From assembly GCA_015063795.1 (NCBI GenBank), contig SVTL01000015.1, positions 1 to 53,125 on the forward strand: DNA of 53,125 nucleotides. Direction: 5' to 3'. The translations under genes and the position numbers were made by a program. The notes beneath the pieces are model-generated. The model saw only the letters and a list, made by a program, of their open reading frames with translations, was not told where the DNA came from and did no database searches. The DNA comes from Oscillospiraceae bacterium (GTDB lineage Bacteria; Bacillota; Clostridia; Oscillospirales; CAG-272). Positions 4,537 through 53,125 of the stretch are shown here, piece after piece. Numbering within the stretch: the stretch's first letter is position 1; each line of letters begins with the position of its first letter.

Positions 4537-4968
4537 ATGAACATGGATCTGTTTGACAGCGGATCGTTTCAAATCGCCGTGCCCGATGGCTGGATAGCCT
4601 TCTGCGGCATTGACAGCGAATGCAGGACAACGCAGAAGAAGGTACATATTTTCAAGGAAGCGAAGCTTGAAACCGACATTTTCACCCATGCCGGCATCAC
4701 GGTCTGCTTTTTCAGCAAGGAGGATTTTTATCTGTCTCCCAAGTTTTTCTACGACGATGTTGTCGACATGGAGCCGTTCACCCTCGGCGCTTACACATGG
4801 GACGGCTATACCTGTACAAGTTTCGGCTATCCCTATACGATGCTGGAAGCAAGGCAGGACGGCTGTGTCTTTCAGGTGATGATCCTCACCAAAAACGGCG
4901 AACATGAGATCTCGCTTGCGGATGCGGACGTACAAGCCATATTAACAAGTCTTACACAAACGAACTGA
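4537..4968 (+). CDS. Hypothetical protein (143 aa, MNMDLFDSG...)
   Basis: In-frame ATG lies 6 nt after the upstream stop, which suggests translational coupling. The ORF-track start at 4462 overlaps the preceding gene. Confidence 0.45.
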   Translation: MNMDLFDSGSFQIAVPDGWIAFCGIDSECRTTQKKVHIFKEAKLETDIFTHAGITVCFFSKEDFYLSPKFFYDDVVDMEPFTLGAYTWDGYTCTSFGYPYTMLEARQDGCVFQVMILTKNGEHEISLADADVQAILTSLTQTN

Positions 4969-8788: not shown

Positions 8789-8841
8789 CCTGCTGTTTCA
8801 TCGGTCATCGCACGATTGAAGAAAAGAAAAAAACTCACTGT
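8789..8841 (+). repeat. Copy A of a ~53-nt direct repeat: frameshifted 5' coding fragment of a SLOG/DUF1273 gene (TCCFIGHRTIEEKKK...)
   Basis: About 95 % identical to copy B at 9365-9416. Homologous at protein level to the N-terminus of the intact gene at 9750. Confidence 0.75.
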
Positions 8842-8878
8842 GATTTTCCGAATACAGAGAGTTTTTCATGCGCATGAA

Positions 8879-9214
8879 TTATTTATTTCTTAAAACAGCC
8901 TTTGTGGTTTTGATAACCTCCGCAAGGGACTTGAGTTCTTCCGCAGAGCAATCCGAAAGAATATCGTCAATCAACTTCATGGAAACATGATTGCTCTTGA
9001 CTAAGCTGCCATATGCGATTTCGTCAAGAGTTACACCAAGCGCGTTTGCGATATTAACTAATGTGGGCAAGCTCAGTTTGGTTGCCGCACGTTCGATATG
9101 AGAAATGTTGGACGGCTCAATGCCGGATTCTTCTGCAAGCTTTGCTTGCGTCCATCCTTTTGCAGTACGAATCTCTTTGATTCTGCTGCCGATCGAAATA
9201 TAATCAATCCCCAT
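8879..9214 (-). CDS. XRE-family HTH regulator (112 aa) with a C-terminal helical extension
   Basis: Start MGIDYISIGSRIKEIRTAKGWTQAKLAEESG with SD GAGGTG 7 nt upstream. The track start MYIIL at 9283 has no SD. Confidence 0.75.
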   Translation of the reverse strand: MGIDYISIGSRIKEIRTAKGWTQAKLAEESGIEPSNISHIERAATKLSLPTLVNIANALGVTLDEIAYGSLVKSNHVSMKLIDDILSDCSAEELKSLAEVIKTTKAVLRNK

Positions 9215-9250
9215 GGAATTCACCTCATCATTTGCACTGAAGTTATTGTA

Positions 9251-9297
9251 TATCCGATTCGGATATGGTAAAATAATGTACATATCCGATTAGGATA
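9251..9297. promoter_or_regulatory. Two palindromic operator-like sites, TATCCGAtTCGGATA (9251-9265) and TATCCGAtTAGGATA (9283-9297), upstream of XRE-112
   Basis: Perfect and near-perfect 15-bp palindromes spaced 32 bp apart in the regulator's own promoter region. Confidence 0.5.
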
Positions 9298-9364
9298 CAG
9301 AATAATATTTATTTGTTTTTTCTTGTGCAAACGATACACGCGGTGAGTATTTTGACAAAATATC

Positions 9365-9437
9365 CCTGCTGTTTCATCGGTCACCGCACGATTGAAGGAA
9401 AGAAAAAACTCACTGTTCTTTCACAGCGAGCTTTCCA
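9365..9437 (+). repeat. Copy B of the SLOG 5' fragment repeat (PCCFIGHRTIEGKKKLTVLSQRA)
   Basis: About 95 % nt identity to copy A over 52 nt. Protein similarity to the intact SLOG N-terminus extends about 25 codons. It runs into the antisense of the next regulator gene. Confidence 0.75.
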
Positions 9438-9440
9438 ACC

Positions 9441-9641
9441 TTATTTGCGTGTCGGCTTTACATTGGAATCGGGTTTGATATCGCCCTCAATGGGGCCGTT
9501 GGCATCCTCAAAGGCTTTGATGTGCTGTCGGATCAAAACCAGCACCTGACTGTTCACACTTCTTCCCTCGTAATCGGCAACATAAGTAATTTTGTTCAGC
9601 ATTTCCTCTTCGATCCGAATCGATACGCTCTTGATAGCCAT
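9441..9641 (-). CDS. Ribbon-helix-helix (Arc/CopG-like) DNA-binding protein (66 aa)
   Basis: SVSIRIEEEMLNKI...YEGRSVNSQVLVLIRQHI fits the RHH beta-alpha-alpha pattern. SD GAGGTG 6 nt upstream. Confidence 0.65.
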   Translation of the reverse strand: MAIKSVSIRIEEEMLNKITYVADYEGRSVNSQVLVLIRQHIKAFEDANGPIEGDIKPDSNVKPTRK

Positions 9642-9749
9642 AAGATCACCTCAAAACAAATATATGATGTATTTATTTTAGATGCATTATGTGATATAAT
9701 GGCTAAAATAGATATATGGTATATCTATAAAATTTTAGGAGATGAACCA

Positions 9750-10232
9750 ATGACATCGAAGAACATCCTGCATACCTGCTGTTTCATCGGTCGTCGCAAG
9801 ATCGAGGAAAGCGAAGGATTGACGTTGAGCATAAGGCAACATATTGAAAGACTGATCACGGAAGAACGGGTGAACACCTTTTTGTTCGGAAGCCGATCGG
9901 ACTTTGACCGCCTGTGTCTGAAGACGGTGAGCGAACTGCAGAAACAATACCCGCACATCAAAAGAATCTACGTGCGGGCGGAATTCCCTTTCATTGACGA
10001 TACCTACAAAGCCTATCTGCTGCGATCCTACGACGAAACCTACTACCCCGAAGCGATCCTCGGTACCGGACGAGCGGTCTACATCAGGCGCAACCGCCAC
10101 ATGATCGACAACAGCCGCTTCTGCATCGTTTACCTCGACGAAGCCTCCGCCCCCCGCAACAGCGGCACCCGTCAGGCAGTCGCCTATGCCAAAGCGAAAG
10201 GCGCCATCACCGTCAACATCGCAGAAGCATAA
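9750..10232 (+). CDS. SLOG-family (YpsA/DUF1273-like) protein (160 aa)
   Basis: N-terminal CCFIGRR motif typical of DUF1273 proteins. SD tAGGAGatg 7 nt before the ATG at 9750. The track ORF start at 9522 is an upstream extension without an SD. Confidence 0.7.
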   Translation: MTSKNILHTCCFIGRRKIEESEGLTLSIRQHIERLITEERVNTFLFGSRSDFDRLCLKTVSELQKQYPHIKRIYVRAEFPFIDDTYKAYLLRSYDETYYPEAILGTGRAVYIRRNRHMIDNSRFCIVYLDEASAPRNSGTRQAVAYAKAKGAITVNIAEA

Positions 10233-28687: not shown

Positions 28688-28825
28688 AAAAACCATCGAT
28701 TGAACAAACCATGTATCGTTGCGCATATAATCCACTGTCTTCGGATGGATTGTATCATAAAAGCTCAATGTTTACACATAAAAATGAAGCACACGCTGCT
28801 CTCGCAGGAAGCGAAACGATTTTTT

Positions 28826-28943
28826 GCTCTTCTCTTTTCTCAAAAAACGACAATTTGAGAGAAGAGAGAAAATCGAAAAAGTGAAAAGAGAAAAGAACAA
28901 AAAGAAACGACAATCTTCAATTGAAAATTGTCGTTTCTTTTGG
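28826..28943. repeat. Structured direct repeat, copy 1: CT-tract, aacgacaattt, GA-tract, then a perfect 11-bp hairpin gaaacgacaat/attgtcgtttc and a T-run
   Basis: About 85 % identical to copy 2 at 29753-29889. The hairpin at 28904-28937 plus TTTT acts as the terminator of the upstream minus-strand mini-operon. Confidence 0.8.
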
Positions 28944-29752: not shown

Positions 29753-29889
29753 CCTTTTCTCTTCTCTTTTCTCTCTTATCTTTTCTCTGGAAACGACAAT
29801 TTGAGAGAAGAGAGAAAAGTGAAAAGATAAAAGTGAAGAGACCAAAAAGAAACGACAATCTTCTGTCGAAAATTGTCGTTTCTTTTTGG
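29753..29889. repeat. Structured direct repeat, copy 2, immediately 3' of tRNA-Ser; its hairpin and T-run is the tRNA terminator
   Basis: CT-tract, aacgacaattt, GA-tract, then hairpin gaaacgacaat-cttctgtcgaaa-attgtcgtttc at 29849-29882, flanked by an A-run and a T-run. Adjoins the tRNA 3' end. Confidence 0.8.
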
Positions 29890-48347: not shown

Positions 48348-50077
48348 AGATCACCATCGACGGCATGAGCCTTGAGGTTCCTGCCGACATTACAATACTC
48401 GAAGCCGCCAGAACGGCCGGCATCAACATCCCCACGCTCTGCTACTTAAAGGACATCAACGAGATCGCCGCCTGCCGCATCTGTGTGGTGGAGGTGGAGG
48501 GCGTTGACCGCCTGGTTCCCGCCTGCAACACCAAGGTGGAGGAGGGCATGGTGGTTCTGACCAACACCAACCGCGTGAAGGAGAACCGCAAGATCAATCT
48601 TCAGCTCATCCTCTCTCAGCACAACAGCAACTGTCCCACCTGCGTGAGAAACGGCAACTGCACCCTGCAGCGACTGGCTGCGGAAAGCAACCTGTCCAGC
48701 GATCTTTACAGCAAGAAGATCTCGTCCAAGCCCTGGTCCAAGGACAACCATCTCATCCGCGACGAAAGCAAGTGCATCAAGTGCATGCGCTGCATCCAGA
48801 TCTGCGACAAGGTGCAGAAAATGAACGTCTGGGATGTGATCAACACCGGCAGCCGCACCACCGTGGGCGTCAGCGGCAACCGCAAGTTCAACGAGACCGA
48901 CTGTACCCTCTGCGGTCAGTGCATCACCCACTGCCCTGTGGGCGCGCTCCGCGTCAACGACGACACGTCCAAGGTCATCGCCGCTCTGACCGATCCCGAG
49001 ATTACCACCGTTGTGCAGGTGGCTCCCGCCGTCCGCGCCGCATGGGGCGAGCATCTCGGGCTGACCAAGGAGCAGGCCACCACCGGACGCATGGTCGCCG
49101 CCCTCCGCCGTCTCGGCTTTGACTACATCTTCGACACCAACTTCGCCGCCGACCTGACCGTCATGGAGGAAGGCAGCGAATTCATCGAGCGCTTCACGCA
49201 CAAGAGCGAATACGCCTGGCCCATGCTCACCTCCTGCTGCCCCGGCTGGGTACGCTTCGTGAAGGGCAATTTCCCGCAATATACCGACAACCTGTCCACC
49301 GCCAAGTCGCCTCAGCAGATGTTCGGCGCGGCCGCCAAGAGCTACTTCGCCGAAAAGGTCGGCATCGATCCCAAGAAGATCTTTGTCGTTTCCATCATGC
49401 CCTGCGTGGCCAAGAAGAGCGAATGCAAGCTGCCCGCTCACGTCAACGACAACGGCGATCCCGATGTGGATGTGGTTCTGACCACCCGCGAGTTCCAGCG
49501 TATGCTTCTCGCCGACAAGGCCGATCTGGGCTCGCTTCCCGAGTCGGAATTCGATTCGCCTCTCGGTCAGAGCTCGGGTGCCGGTCTGATCTTCGGCGCC
49601 ACCGGCGGCGTGATGATCGCCGCTCTCCGCAGTGCCTACTATCTGGTCACCGGCAAGAATCCCGATGCCGACGCCTTCTCGTCCATCGGAGGCAAGATCG
49701 GCTGGAGCGAGGCCGTGTTTACCATTCCCGGCGCGGGCGAGGTGAAGGTAGCCGTAGTCAGCGGTCTGAGCAACGCTCGCGCGCTGATGGAAGCCATTGA
49801 AACAGGCAAGGTCGCCTATGACTTTGTGGAGGTCATGGCTTGTCCCGGCGGATGTGCCGGCGGCGGCGGTCAGCCCATTCACGACGGCTTTGAGATGGCC
49901 GCACAGCGCGGCGATATCCTTTGGGAGCTGGACAAGAAGGCTGCCAACCGCTTCTCGCATGAGAACCCCGACATCCAGGCTCTCTACCGCGACTATTTCG
50001 AAAAGCCCCTGAGTGAAAAGGCTCACCACCTGCTCCACACCGACCACCACACATGGGAGATGCCCAAGAAGAAATAA
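48341..50077 (+). CDS. hydA: [FeFe] hydrogenase catalytic subunit (N-terminal [2Fe-2S] and [4Fe-4S] ferredoxin-like domains plus the H-cluster domain)
   Basis: H-cluster motifs TSCCPGWV, MPCVAKKSE, EVMACPGGCAGGGGQP. Start/stop overlap ATGGTAA. SD GGGAGGGA. Confidence 0.9.
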   Translation: MVKITIDGMSLEVPADITILEAARTAGINIPTLCYLKDINEIAACRICVVEVEGVDRLVPACNTKVEEGMVVLTNTNRVKENRKINLQLILSQHNSNCPTCVRNGNCTLQRLAAESNLSSDLYSKKISSKPWSKDNHLIRDESKCIKCMRCIQICDKVQKMNVWDVINTGSRTTVGVSGNRKFNETDCTLCGQCITHCPVGALRVNDDTSKVIAALTDPEITTVVQVAPAVRAAWGEHLGLTKEQATTGRMVAALRRLGFDYIFDTNFAADLTVMEEGSEFIERFTHKSEYAWPMLTSCCPGWVRFVKGNFPQYTDNLSTAKSPQQMFGAAAKSYFAEKVGIDPKKIFVVSIMPCVAKKSECKLPAHVNDNGDPDVDVVLTTREFQRMLLADKADLGSLPESEFDSPLGQSSGAGLIFGATGGVMIAALRSAYYLVTGKNPDADAFSSIGGKIGWSEAVFTIPGAGEVKVAVVSGLSNARALMEAIETGKVAYDFVEVMACPGGCAGGGGQPIHDGFEMAAQRGDILWELDKKAANRFSHENPDIQALYRDYFEKPLSEKAHHLLHTDHHTWEMPKKK

Positions 50078-50097
50078 GGTCGGTCAAAATCGCATAA

Positions 50098-50146
50098 AAA
50101 CACAAGAGGTGCCGCCCGTTTGATGGGTTGCACCTCTTTTTTTGTA
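50098..50146. terminator. Bidirectional terminator after hydA
   Basis: AAAAA, hairpin agaggtgc...gcacctct, then TTTTTTT. Confidence 0.75.
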
Positions 50147-50157
50147 TTCAAAATGCC

Positions 50158-51117
50158 TTAGCCCGCATAGCCTCTCGGCGGCAGGGTGATGGCAAGCTCG
50201 GTCTCGGTCTTGTCCGCGCCCGTCAGATACGTGATCTTCAGCTTGCCCTTCGCCTCAAACTCACCGCTTGTGACAAAATCGGCAACGTTCTCGGAGGCAT
50301 TTTCAAGAATATATTCCTTATAATAATCATCCTTGTCAAAAATATCCCGCACCACGATCAGGTGCTGTCCGTCTCTCTGCTCGGCATAGACCACAAGGTC
50401 GTATTTGGCCGTCAGCACATACGAAAAGGGCTCGGACACACGCCCCTCCGACAGTTCATAATAGGTAGCAGTTCTGGTAGATGGGCCTGCTTCCTGAAAG
50501 GCGATGCCCGTCACATGGGTGCTGACACTTTCTTCCATCGGCATTTTCGTCAAATTCTCTTCGCAAGCCAAAACCTGCCCATCATAATCGACAACAATAT
50601 AGTAATTGAGATTTTCTTCCGGGGAACTGTAAATTCTGTCAGCATAAACACTACTCGGTTCATATCGAGTAACATCTTTGATCGCTCCGTAAAACAATCC
50701 ATAGTGGCCGCCGTCGTTCATATCAAAAGTTCCGTACACTTCCACATACTTACCGTTATGCCGTTCTGCCTCTTTTTTGGAAATCACAGTCTCATCAAGA
50801 TCGATCCAAATACGTTGATCCCCGCCGTATTTCAAATCTTCTTCGCTCAATGCAATGCAGTTTCCTTCAAACTCGATGTTCCCAACACCAATCACACGAA
50901 CCTCTTTCCCATGGTATTTTTCAGGCGTGGCAAGTAGCTGCACCATCGAAACAAAACCATACTGAGAACGTGAGTAGCATTCCTCTTTTTCAACTTCCTC
51001 CTCTGCCTCAAACGAAAGCAATCCGTTTCGGTAAAACACACCCAGAACAAACGCCGCAAGAAGAATCAGAAGAACAAACTGCAGAATGCATAGAATCCAA
51101 AGTGCTTTTTTGTTCAT
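50158..51117 (-). CDS. Membrane-anchored hypothetical protein (319 aa)
   Basis: N-terminal signal-anchor helix (MNKKALWILCILQFVLLILLAAFVLGVF). No recognised domain. Confidence 0.6.
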   Translation of the reverse strand: MNKKALWILCILQFVLLILLAAFVLGVFYRNGLLSFEAEEEVEKEECYSRSQYGFVSMVQLLATPEKYHGKEVRVIGVGNIEFEGNCIALSEEDLKYGGDQRIWIDLDETVISKKEAERHNGKYVEVYGTFDMNDGGHYGLFYGAIKDVTRYEPSSVYADRIYSSPEENLNYYIVVDYDGQVLACEENLTKMPMEESVSTHVTGIAFQEAGPSTRTATYYELSEGRVSEPFSYVLTAKYDLVVYAEQRDGQHLIVVRDIFDKDDYYKEYILENASENVADFVTSGEFEAKGKLKITYLTGADKTETELAITLPPRGYAG

Positions 51118-51214
51118 TTTGCCACCGCCTTTTTGTTTGATAATCTATTATATCACATTTCAAACAAAAAGTAAAGCCGGCGCAGTATAATTCCTCTGAA
51201 AAATCAAATATTAA

Positions 51215-51279
51215 CTTCACATTTTTTGATTCAAAAGGAGATTATATATAAGAAAGCCACAGGCATTGTCAGACGCATC
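51215..51279 (+). repeat. Direct repeat copy 1: SD plus 5' end of a SpoVT/AbrB-type gene, with the start codon mutated (tatataTAAGaaagcc)
   Basis: Motif ttttgattcaaaaggagatt...aaagccacaggcattgtcagacgcatc, about 90 % identical to copy 2. It would encode MKATGIVRRI, but ATG has become AAG. Confidence 0.75.
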
Positions 51280-51384
51280 CATAAATGAGGTGTAATAACA
51301 CCAAGACCCGAAAAGCCTCATAGGCACTACATTTTTACAGATTTTCTCAAAATCAATTTGCACAAATACAAAATCTATCCATAG

Positions 51385-51418
51385 CAAAAGCGAGGTATAT
51401 GTTATCTCGCTTTTGTTT
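51385..51418. terminator. Bidirectional hairpin terminator downstream of the Gfo/Idh/MocA gene
   Basis: Hairpin aaagcgag-gtatatgttatc-tcgcttt followed by T-rich sequence on both strands. Confidence 0.6.
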
Positions 51419-52634
51419 ATAAATCGCAAACATCTTTTCTTGGACGCTTATACCATTTACCGTTCGTAAAGTCAGGCATCGCCTGAGGGGCACCCCCCTG
51501 CTGAATTGAGATTTCTGAAAGCACCGAAACTGCCTGCCATGTGGCAGCATCATAAACATCAACAGGCATTTCTGTTTTATTTATCAAAGCATCGGTAAAC
51601 GCTTTATAACAAAACCAATCCATACCGCCATGGCCCGCTTTCATTTCTTCATCTGTTATATTTTTCCATATGCTTGGCAGATATTCTTCCTCGTATTTTT
51701 TAGCATTATTCAGATTGTCTATATAATAATCATACATATCCCAGTAAGTATGTTTTTCACCGTCAAGAAAAACCGAATTCGTATCCTGCATAAACATACC
51801 TTTTGTTCCTCTAACTGTAAAATCACGCGTATATGAACGAGGAAGTGTGGTGTCAAGTCGGAGCATAATCGTTTCGCCGTTTGCACAAGTCAAAATCGTG
51901 ATGATAACATCCCCCTGCTTAAAATCCGCATTTTTCATTTCCTCGGTGGCGTCGTCACGCTCTTTTATATAGTCTTTAAGGCCGACAGCCTTTGTTGCAA
52001 ATGAAGATACGGTAAGAATTCGGTTGCCTCTGTTAATATCAAGAAGCTTAGCAATAGGGCCCAAATCATGTGTAGGATAGTTATCACAGCAACGGTTTAA
52101 ATAGTTATCAAAACGGTAATGACGATTTACATGCCCATAAGCAATTTCATCTCTTAAATCATGAGAATAAGAGCCGGAGCAATGGACAACGGTGCCGAAT
52201 TTCCCTTTTCTTGCCATAGCGGTTGCCAAGAGCTCAGCCTTACCCCAACAACAATTTTCCACAAACATGTACGGCGTGCCGGTTTCCTCTTGAACTCTCA
52301 CTAACTCATAACAGTTTTCCAAAGAATATTCGCATCCAACTTCACTTGCAACAGCAATTCCTTTTTTCATTGCATAAACTGCAATTTCAGTGTGTGTGCT
52401 CCAATCACTAAACACAAATACCGCATCAACGATATCCACCGCAAGAGCTTCTTTATAATCGGTAAAACCCTTCGCATCTTGTCCAGCTTCTCTTACCAAT
52501 TCGATTGCTCTTTGTATTCTATCTTCATATAAATCGCAAACAGCAACAATGTTAAGGCTACTTATTTTCAACAGCACTTTTTTGAGCAAATCGTATCCAC
52601 GATTCCCCAGTCCGACAACACATGCATTTATCAT
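51417..52634 (-). CDS. Gfo/Idh/MocA-family NAD-binding oxidoreductase (possibly a GH109-like NAD-dependent glycosidase)
   Basis: N-terminal Rossmann GLGNRG motif and a GHGGMDW motif in the C-terminal half. No signal peptide. Confidence 0.75.
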   Translation of the reverse strand: MINACVVGLGNRGYDLLKKVLLKISSLNIVAVCDLYEDRIQRAIELVREAGQDAKGFTDYKEALAVDIVDAVFVFSDWSTHTEIAVYAMKKGIAVASEVGCEYSLENCYELVRVQEETGTPYMFVENCCWGKAELLATAMARKGKFGTVVHCSGSYSHDLRDEIAYGHVNRHYRFDNYLNRCCDNYPTHDLGPIAKLLDINRGNRILTVSSFATKAVGLKDYIKERDDATEEMKNADFKQGDVIITILTCANGETIMLRLDTTLPRSYTRDFTVRGTKGMFMQDTNSVFLDGEKHTYWDMYDYYIDNLNNAKKYEEEYLPSIWKNITDEEMKAGHGGMDWFCYKAFTDALINKTEMPVDVYDAATWQAVSVLSEISIQQGGAPQAMPDFTNGKWYKRPRKDVCDL

Positions 52635-52867
52635 ACTCTTTTCTCCTTTAAGCCAACAATATATGTTATGTTCATTTTAATAAAATCGCTTTCATTGAAA
52701 AGCCCATATAAAATTAAATCAACATCGGTATCGAGCCAAATCAATCCCGTTATGATAACACCAATAGACTCAATGACAAATATCCACTTTGCCCAATTTT
52801 TAATTTTACCGCCTATGGTTTCGTATAAATGATCAAATATAAAGAAAACATCCGATTGTTTCTTCAT
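52631..52867 (-). CDS. Small membrane protein (78 aa), hypothetical
   Basis: One or two TM helices. Its 3' end overlaps the downstream gene by 4 nt (ATGA). Confidence 0.4.
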   Translation of the reverse strand: MKKQSDVFFIFDHLYETIGGKIKNWAKWIFVIESIGVIITGLIWLDTDVDLILYGLFNESDFIKMNITYIVGLKEKRV

Positions 52868-52932
52868 TATAGCACAAACACATTAAAAAGTAAACACACT
52901 AGTATAAATCTCCCCGTTTTACAAATACTATC

Positions 52933-52998
52933 ATCACAAATTTTGATTCAAAAGGAGATTTTATATATATGAAAGCCACAGGCATTGTCAGACGCATC
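52933..52998 (+). repeat. Direct repeat copy 2: intact SD and ATG plus the first 11 codons (MKATGIVRRID) of a SpoVT/AbrB-type gene, then unrelated sequence
   Basis: aaaGGAGattttatatatATGaaagccacaggcattgtcagacgcatcgac. The 11-residue match to the SpoVT/AbrB N-terminus ends abruptly. An embedded TTGTCA-N18-TATAAT-like motif follows. Confidence 0.75.
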
Positions 52999-53125
52999 GA
53001 CTCTTCTGTTATAATAGGGGCAAAGGTCAGAAGCCTTGAAAACACGGGGTTTTCGCTGATTTTTGTCCAACTTCATCAATACCCCAAGCCGTGATGAGGC
53101 TGCCATCACAACAGCTCCTACGCTG

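Follow-up and report, generated by a model that had tools for sequence, protein, structure and literature searches.

Direct repeats at the end of an Oscillospiraceae contig as candidate junctions of integrative conjugative elements in spoVT

Contig SVTL01000015.1 of an Oscillospiraceae bacterium (assembly GCA_015063795.1) was analysed at its full length of 53,125 nucleotides and is referred to below as the window. Near its right-hand end, two direct repeats flank an AT-rich block with a GH109-like oxidoreductase gene, and each repeat carries what is identified here as the 5' end of spoVT, the gene of the sporulation regulator SpoVT. In the explanation that we consider likely, the contig end marks the upstream border of a spoVT locus that has been hit at least twice by mobile elements that target the dinucleotide GA in codon 11 of the gene. 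The second repeat (copy 2), for which this reading is well supported, is, judged by its sequence, the left junction (attL) of a site-specific integrative conjugative element (ICE). The first repeat (copy 1), for which it is reasonably supported, would be an older scar at the same hot spot.

Alignment of the window with itself yields a direct repeat of about 140 bp (51140-51279 and 52859-52998). The original prediction had described two direct repeats of about 65 bp; the repeats are there, but their homology is about twice as long. A 28-mer, GAAAGCCACAGGCATTGTCAGACGCATC, occurs in exactly two copies in the window (51252-51279 and 52971-52998) and in none of 100 shuffled sequences, and a 20-mer, TTTTGATTCAAAAGGAGATT, is likewise found exactly twice and essentially never in shuffles. 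The identity between the copies is graded, i.e., about 60-70% over the upstream ~85 bp and about 97% over the last ~58 bp, where the only differences are a 2-bp indel in the spacer between the Shine-Dalgarno sequence and the start codon, and AAG in place of ATG. An exact segment around the ribosome-binding site (RBS), TTTTGATTCAAAAGGAGATT..ATATATA, is common to copies 1 and 2 only, while their upstream halves differ, which argues for homologous exchange within the unit. The elements of the two units are as follows.

51140..51279, plus strand: copy 1 of the spoVT 5' unit (window sequence and alignment)
51175-51147, minus strand: sigma-70-like promoter of copy 1, facing leftward to the gene of a 319-aa protein
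51185-51189 (GTATA) and 51205-51213 (CAAATATTA), plus strand: forespore-type promoter-like motif of copy 1 (motif conservation among units)
about 51234-51240, plus strand: RBS of copy 1 (read in the sequence)
51250-52, plus strand: dead start AAG of copy 1, followed by codons 2-10
52859..53000, plus strand: copy 2 of the spoVT 5' unit, including the core (window sequence and alignment)
52894-52866, minus strand: sigma-70-like promoter of copy 2, facing leftward to the GH109-like gene
52902-06 (GTATA) and 52922-30 (CAAATACTA), plus strand: promoter-like motif of copy 2 (motif conservation among units)
52951-58, plus strand: RBS of copy 2 (read in the sequence)
52969-71, plus strand: ATG of copy 2, the first of codons 1-11
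52999-53000, plus strand: predicted recombination core GA of copy 2

The leftward promoters, one in each copy, were found by a pattern scan and have an extended -10 region (TTTACT-17-TG-TATAAT). The GTATA ... CAAATATTA motif of copy 1 is a putative forespore-type promoter, assigned in part on the conservation of the motif among units. Copy 2 reads ATG AAA GCC ... ATC GAC, i.e., MKATGIVRRID, and thereafter runs into unrelated sequence. Copy 1 has 10 codons in common with copy 2 and continues past ATC (51277-51279) as CAT AAA TGA. The earlier attribution of 11 codons to both copies is therefore right for copy 2 and one codon too long for copy 1, and the change of the copy 1 start to AAG was seen where it had been claimed.

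The assignment to spoVT rests on intact genes elsewhere. When one genome per species was scanned, the identical 28-mer was found to open intact 180-aa genes, MKATGIVRRIDDLGRVVIPKEIRR..., in two metagenome-assembled genomes (MAGs) of Oscillospiraceae/Ruminococcus (L011 and L012), the encoded protein starting with MKATGIVRRIDDLGRVVIPKEIRRTLRIREGDPLEI.... All of the 120 closest homologues of these genes carry both PF04014 (SpoVT-AbrB) and PF15714 (SpoVT_C). Because the 28-mer opens intact SpoVT genes, the repeats are taken to be the promoter, RBS and first codons of spoVT, as had been proposed, and MKATGIVRRID, confirmed on retranslation of copy 2, is identified as the true N-terminus of SpoVT. 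The promoter region of copy 2 also resembles that of the intact gene in L011. The claim that no intact gene body follows either copy is borne out as well: codons 12-180 were found after neither copy, both in the window and in longer contigs of the same strain, which extend past position 53125. Intact spoVT genes with the same 5' sequence, i.e., empty sites, are present in L011, L012 and L195. The best 120 SpoVT homologues are all intact 180-aa genes except for one open reading frame (ORF) extended upstream, and no right junction is found among them. A search with the 319-aa protein for a version of the window's locus free of element or cassette returned none, the arrangement being the same in 23 of 23 contigs.

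What follows copy 2 identifies it as a junction. The contig ends 127 bp past copy 2, and the segment in between comprises the following features.

53001..53125, plus strand: left end of the predicted element, with P' arm and leader; the element runs beyond the contig end and is continued in contigs of the same strain
53030-53053: terminator-like hairpin in the element's left end (read in the sequence)
52969..53094, plus strand: chimeric ORF of 41 aa, composed of the 11 SpoVT codons and a read-through into the element (ORF list)

In three contigs of the same strain (L002, L005 and L007) the sequence past copy 2 continues into a gene with ParB_N and HTH_ParB domains, a gene for a 203-aa protein, a DUF6017/HTH_36 gene and a small membrane protein. 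In the same sample series, an identical ParB also occurs behind another host flank, with genes for an ABC transporter, an esterase and a GDSL lipase, where it is again preceded by a 41-aa ORF. The element is 99.3% identical over 3.16 kb between the window's host (L002, 1-3160) and this second host (L013, 8631-11791). Such identity in two different hosts of the same goat-gut sample series points to recent transfer within these communities. A further relative, in L020, is 96.8% identical to the element at copy 2 over the first 3.2 kb and continues into genes with DUF3801, VirD4/TraG (PF02534, E 1e-47), Maff2 and TrbL_2; the conjugation genes were read in L020 and were not seen on the short contigs of the window strain itself. 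Another ParB homologue, P0043, proved to be part of a different element type and to be uninformative for the spoVT site.

The element end is fused to spoVT starts as GA C TCTTCTGTTATAATAGGGGCAAAGG or, in a variant, as GA C TATCGTGTTATTATAGGTACAAAGG. The codons at these junctions follow the pattern ATG AAR GCN ACN GGN ATH GTN MGN MGN ATH/GTG, after which the element end begins, i.e., host-specific promoters and synonymous variants of MKATGIVRR(I/V)D meet one sequence, TCTTCTGTTATAATAGGGGCAAAGGTCAGAAGCC..., at GAC. Counting only hosts other than that of the window, the codon-11 GA junction is found in at least 12 contexts (L013, L020, L033, L034, L042, L060, L072 and L075; also L198/199, L200, L203 and L204). 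A protein-guided scan of metagenomes added seven loci in six host contexts (L042 and L043 have a common upstream region), some of them with the variant end TATCGTGTTATTATAGGTACAAAGG, and the exact chimeric 41-aa ORF, which is present in 20 contigs with at least 5 further host contexts, added at least four more contexts to the total. The left junction was found in goat-gut consortia as well as in human-gut and other metagenomes; exact-match scans of viral contigs with the element left end and the copy 1 flank gave 0 matches. An exact scan of metagenome contigs with the 28-mer was also without a match, these samples being absent from that collection. Throughout the junctions, the base 5' of GA depends on the host and the base 3' of GA on the element type, so that the crossover can be assigned to the codon-11 GA in the target site ...ATC GA|C GAC CTC.... 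The reading frame of copy 2 does diverge after codon 11, as noted originally, but what was then called unrelated sequence is the start of the predicted conjugative element, which is why the frame diverges, and the same junction recurs in many hosts. The 41-aa ORF (52969-53094) is accordingly predicted to be a by-product of the junction and not a gene. The element was also met at a look-alike site outside spoVT, GGTCGCATA|GA|C (L087, 640-730), which is probably a secondary attachment site.

The opposite end of such an element was recovered in a single contig, L113, which was found by a search of viral contigs with SpoVT and in which the match begins at residue 11. Here, a DUF6870 gene is followed by three consecutive genes for large serine recombinases (LSRs), each with Resolvase, Recombinase and Zn_ribbon_recom domains, then by about 170 bp and the spoVT junction. 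The tandem LSR genes (L113, 869-5831) encode proteins of 563, 566 and 533 aa and lie at the right end of the spoVT-inserted element. The junction, ...CTTGACATAAAGG|GA|CGACCTCGG (in a longer excerpt ...CTTGACATAAAGG|GA|CGACCTCGGCCGC...), is spoVT from codon 11/12 onward, and on the element side there is neither a spoVT promoter nor the first codons, with an in-frame TAA just upstream of the junction. A replacement start brought along by the element in the style of SXT at prfC was considered and rejected, as the L113 junction has none. Because spoVT is split without a replacement 5' end, the gene would be off unless the element excises. L113 does not overlap the left-end contigs; its GC content (47.7%) compares with 47-48% for the element, and its arm motif TTTGCACC mirrors, by eye, GGGGCAAA of the left arm. 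From this right junction, and from the shared core, whose shortness does not fit the usual pattern of tyrosine integrases, we infer that integration is carried out by an LSR and splits spoVT.

Copy 1 has no intact junction of this kind. Its ATG is changed to AAG, it has suffered a 2-bp deletion, and its core reads CA where all other junctions have GA. Two features follow it.

51280..51385, plus strand: candidate junction scar, with the core CA (51280-81), a P'-arm-like segment and the leader of a related element (similarity to scars elsewhere)
51386..51414, not assigned to a strand: bidirectional terminator-like hairpin AAAAGCGAG-N11-CTCGCTTTT, which abuts the stop codon of the GH109-like gene

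The 137 bp that follow copy 1 matched loci that had been fetched only because they hold the closest GH109 homologues (L026/L196 in GCA_045539375.1, L192/L195 in ENA ERZ28018753 k141_1648628 and L197 in GCA_052841705.1). The sequence after copy 1 is identical at 32 of 35 positions to that after a degenerate spoVT unit in L026. Past this degenerate unit, L026 also holds a stretch (4853-4891, equal to L196 8853-8891) that reads ACACCTCATA-GA-TGAATGAGGTAT and is near-palindromic around GA, its right half being 91% identical to the sequence after copy 1; it resembles an element-element (attP-like) site more closely than a junction of host and element.

Four orphan units in these loci (L195 b, L195 f, L196 a and L197 x) have 11 codons, a GA core, a homologue of the element left end and a hairpin, AAAAGCGAGGTG-N-CACCTCGCTTTT, and together with copy 1 they can be aligned end to end. 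In shuffle tests that compared the 95 nt after the core, these four scars gave z scores of 5.3-10.7 against the present element left end, and the copy 1 flank gave 7.1 against L195_f, 5.3 against L195_b and 4.8 against L196_a. Direct homology between the copy 1 flank and the present element end was tried and rejected (z 1.1, not significant), and only the transitive link through the other scars holds. The hairpin family of 51386-51414 also follows the orphan units in L195, L196 and L197 for which the downstream sequence was read. Since the copy 1 flank matches scars that in turn match the element end, copy 1 is best read as the junction scar of a related element; its present sequence is plain, and the history that it suggests, of an older dead junction of the same kind as copy 2, is reasonably supported. 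Instead of the clean duplicated initiation region left by a cassette insertion, as had been proposed, copy 1 thus appears to be a decayed junction with a remnant related to element ends and a terminator hairpin.

Orphan spoVT starts are stacked in other genomes. In L195 (1143-13990), six spoVT 5' units lie in one orientation within about 13 kb, with break points at codons 11, 16, 0, 11 and 34, and the sixth is an intact 180-aa spoVT. Downstream of orphans b, f, a and d there is in each case a hairpin, followed by the 3' end of a gene that runs leftward from the next unit's leftward promoter; unit c has about 190 bp of unrelated sequence before its hairpin, and unit a retains the core with a further 15 bp. 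The spaces between units are occupied by two HTH_3 regulators, a 60-aa ORF together with a Band_7 gene, the block of the GH109 homologue with a PocR/AraC regulator and fucose-type genes, and a gene for a 263-aa protein. The two HTH_3 genes are near-paralogues and each lies directly past a scar. Across the orphans the break points vary among codons 0, 11, 16, ~29 and 34. The terminator of the intact L195 spoVT, AAAAAACGAGGTGAAATCACCTCGTTTTTT, is of the same type as the orphan hairpins, which suggests that the orphans are decayed copies of whole spoVT genes, some of them hit by an element and then deleted and others deleted internally.

The block between copies 1 and 2 and the gene to its left contain three ORFs.

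51417..52634, minus strand: cytoplasmic Gfo/Idh/MocA oxidoreductase of 405 aa with a GH109 C-terminal domain, the cargo gene (Pfam)
52631..52867, minus strand: ORF of 78 aa over the 5' leader and promoter region of the GH109-like gene (ORF list)
50158..51117, minus strand: membrane-anchored protein of 319 aa, transcribed away from copy 1 (ORF list)

The description of an AT-rich block that encodes a GH109-like Gfo/Idh/MocA enzyme remains valid. The block has a GC content of 38%, compared with 54% over the initial 50 kb of the window and 47% (46.7%) for the 319-aa gene. The 405-aa ORF matches PF21252 (Glyco_hydro_109_C, E 1.6e-54) and, with its N-terminal NAD-binding Rossmann domain, PF01408 (GFO_IDH_MocA, E 1.6e-9), so that its prediction as such an enzyme holds. 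Its closest homologues are 83-86% identical and belong to sugar loci beside AraC regulators, and those in L195, L196 and L197 also have a spoVT unit, in varied states of decay, and a hairpin at the 3' end. That the block was a native upstream neighbour of spoVT in a donor was considered and rejected, as the nearest homologues lie beside AraC regulators and the spoVT units near them are orphans. The 78-aa membrane protein that had been counted as part of the block exists as an ORF, but it is probably not a conserved or real gene: it has no family hit in Pfam or NCBIfam and no tblastn match in any other locus, and its 3' part (52635-52721) can be aligned with non-coding DNA that lies upstream of the GH109 homologue in L192/L193.

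The 319-aa protein, which has no Pfam or NCBIfam hit, adjoins the GH109 block in 23 of 23 contigs. The order 319-aa gene, copy 1, GH109 gene and copy 2 is seen in 21-23 contigs, which come from many JGI and ENA samples and independent assemblers, with ParB beyond wherever the contig reaches that far. An Rfam scan of 49500-53125 at full sensitivity (by E-value) gave one sub-threshold match only, to the Listeria small RNA rli28 over the start of the 319-aa gene (51026-51162, minus strand; 29 bits against a gathering threshold of 45, E 0.62), which is most likely noise.

These observations can be combined into a history in four steps. An element would first have integrated in spoVT at codon 11. 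The hit gene and the element would then have decayed to copy 1, scar and terminator, the rest of the gene copy and of the element being deleted. Next, a module of the form GH109 <- divergent promoters -> spoVT 5' end would have placed a fresh spoVT start downstream of the dead copy, possibly by recombination via the conserved spoVT 5' sequence, either as Campbell-type integration of a circle or as a double crossover (scar and gene body), with no dedicated cassette integrase. Finally, the present element would have integrated into the fresh start and thereby formed copy 2. A serine recombinase is unable to make extra host-derived left arms, and each unit would therefore have come from spoVT-bearing DNA; the varied break points and the lack of a unit at the L113 junction also argue against simple recombinase-driven accretion. 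The original prediction saw a cassette inserted at the 5' end of a small regulatory gene. There is no sign of a dedicated mechanism for such an insertion, and the block is better described as the GH109-like gene together with the divergent promoters that belong to a second copy of spoVT, although this origin as a module is the weakest step.

Several observations weigh against this history. The flank of copy 1 is connected to the present element end only through the other scars, and its core is CA, not GA. In this strain neither the recombinase nor the right end is reached, and the link to L113 consists of the shared site, GC content and arm motif. How a second spoVT start was placed downstream of a dead one is conjectural, and the 23 contigs contain no polymorphic version of the locus. 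As neither the window nor the extended contigs yielded a spoVT body, copy 2 could be an orphan fragment instead of a working gene start. Finally, the closest GH109 homologues that have no spoVT units (L027/28 and L194) lie in ordinary AraC sugar loci.

Among the alternatives, the one that survives best, though we hold it to be unlikely, is that of self-restoring cassettes, i.e., non-autonomous blocks from GA to GA with a promoter and 11 spoVT codons at their right end, which the ICE recombinase would insert in trans at codon 11, regenerating spoVT and producing tandem accretion as in SCCmec or CIME-ICE arrays. The L195 array does terminate in an intact spoVT, several orphans end precisely at the GA core with an element-type arm next to it, the block in the window spans core (51280) to core (52999), and the cargo of each block faces the leftward promoter of the right-hand unit. 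On such a scheme, however, the sole right junction, L113, should not have a normal recombinase-side arm devoid of a spoVT start, nor should other orphans break at codon 0, 16, ~29 or 34 instead of 11. The mutated core of copy 1 and the identity gradient between the copies, which indicates homologous exchange inside the unit, also speak against it, and it would need a reaction between an attL-like site and attB, which large serine recombinases are not known to perform.

It is distinctly improbable that the orphan starts are decoys, kept as harmless landing sites, with copy 2 being such an orphan and an intact spoVT residing elsewhere in the strain. Most orphans are scarred or lack the right half of the site and resemble debris more than maintained sequence, and a second spoVT of this MAG was not found. 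At least one orphan (L195 unit a), with its core and the adjoining 15 bp, would nevertheless fit a decoy, the neighbourhood in the window (hydrogenase genes) is unlike that of spoVT in L011, and the window contig ends too early to settle the matter.

A local tandem duplication of the spoVT upstream region combined with an unrelated foreign insertion, without any element junction at copy 1, is very improbable: it would account for the direct orientation of the copies and the near-identity of their last 58 bp, but not for upstream halves that are only ~60-70% identical, nor for a copy 1 that ends at the position typical of the element family, has CA in place of the core GA, and gives way to a sequence with relatives among the element-end scars of three other genomes. 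We give hardly any credence to an assembly chimera at a repeated sequence, despite a contig end 127 bp past copy 2, where assemblies often break, since the same order recurs in 21-23 contigs from independent samples and assemblers.

Repeated integration at spoVT, with decay of the first junction, therefore remains the reading that we prefer. A bolder generalisation, which we regard as rather doubtful, is that the spoVT 5' end serves as a landing pad for cassettes in gut Clostridia. Modules of cargo, a two-way promoter unit and 11 codons would be captured serially at codon 11, via ICE serine recombinases or homology between gene starts, each restoring spoVT and displacing the previous start upstream, and transmissible arrays with as many as six units, carrying sugar-utilisation and regulator genes, would be the outcome.

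SpoVT is a key regulator in the forespore, and the formation of spores governs transmission between hosts. A widespread conjugative element that splits spoVT at codon 11 would tie horizontal transfer to the loss or switching of sporulation in gut Clostridia. The stacked dead spoVT starts with cargo between them suggest that the site has been hit and repaired repeatedly, and carbohydrate genes such as that of the GH109-like enzyme seem to travel with the junction debris. There is also a practical consequence: spoVT/abrB-like ORFs of 24-88 aa at such loci are probably by-products of junctions, not genes, and assemblies tend to break there.

Two other sets of direct repeats were seen in the window. 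Three direct copies of a 44-nt sequence, CCTGCTGTTTCATCGGTC... (8789, 9365 and 9775, spanning 8789-9818), lie around small HTH genes and at the beginning of a 236-aa gene, in a region that is presumably the "SLOG locus" to which the original prediction likened the spoVT repeats. Direct repeats of about 120 bp (28821-28941 and 29767-29886), each with an inverted repeat, AAGAAACGACAAT...ATTGTCGTTTCTT, flank a block of 0.95 kb with ORFs of 99 and 109 aa.

The arrays resemble those of integrons in that short repeats alternate with single cargo genes beside a fixed platform. In contrast to integrons, the repeats here are gene-start fragments with their own promoters and the cargo is transcribed from the right-hand repeat, not from a common Pc promoter; scans of ORFs, repeats and patterns gave no IntI, no tyrosine integrase and no attC-like structures at the locus.

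Arrays of target-gene ends are also known from tandem accretion, as in SCCmec composite islands at rlmH and CIME-ICESt1 at fda. As in these systems, several direct repeats of the end of one target gene lie between an intact element and a block of cargo or decayed element. The repeats described here differ in that they are ~140 bp long and comprise two promoters together with the 5' end of the gene, and in that the break points of the orphans range over codons 0-34. Not every junction is a usable site, given the decayed CA core of copy 1 and the other orphans that end off codon 11. The right junction in L113, albeit a single example, has no copy of the target's end, and simple accretion by a recombinase therefore fails to explain the array.

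Among conjugative elements, the closest counterparts are the conjugative transposons/ICEs of Clostridia with large serine recombinases, e.g., CTn2, CTn5/Tn6103 and CTn7 of Clostridioides difficile (PMC3158075). The elements share with CTn2, CTn5 and CTn7 the VirD4/TraG, TrbL/VirB6-like, Maff2 and DUF3801 genes, a ParB-like gene at one end, precise junctions with a shared core of only 2-3 bp, and, judging from L113, recombinase genes at the opposite end. The target, codon 11 of spoVT, and the three tandem recombinase genes at the right end in L113 set the spoVT elements apart. No report of spoVT as an integration target was found in a targeted literature search or in the supplement of a large survey of integration sites (PMC7192596), an absence that is no proof of novelty.

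Elements that interrupt sporulation genes are well described, i.e., skin in sigK, SPbeta in spsM, gin in gerE and yin in yabG (PMC4191935, PMC5595907, PMC10747680). In those cases, as predicted here for codon 11 of spoVT, a mobile or formerly mobile element with a serine recombinase lies inside the coding sequence of a sporulation gene, and only its excision restores the gene. The element described here differs in being a full conjugative element. The targets of skin, SPbeta, gin and yin are, moreover, expressed in the mother cell, whose genome is discarded, in contrast to the target described here. In Bacillus and C. difficile, spoVT is expressed in the forespore under the control of sigma-G. 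With a target expressed in the forespore, excision would remove the element from the germ line, which argues against a classical skin-type scheme and sets conjugative elements in spoVT apart from the known interruptions of sporulation genes.

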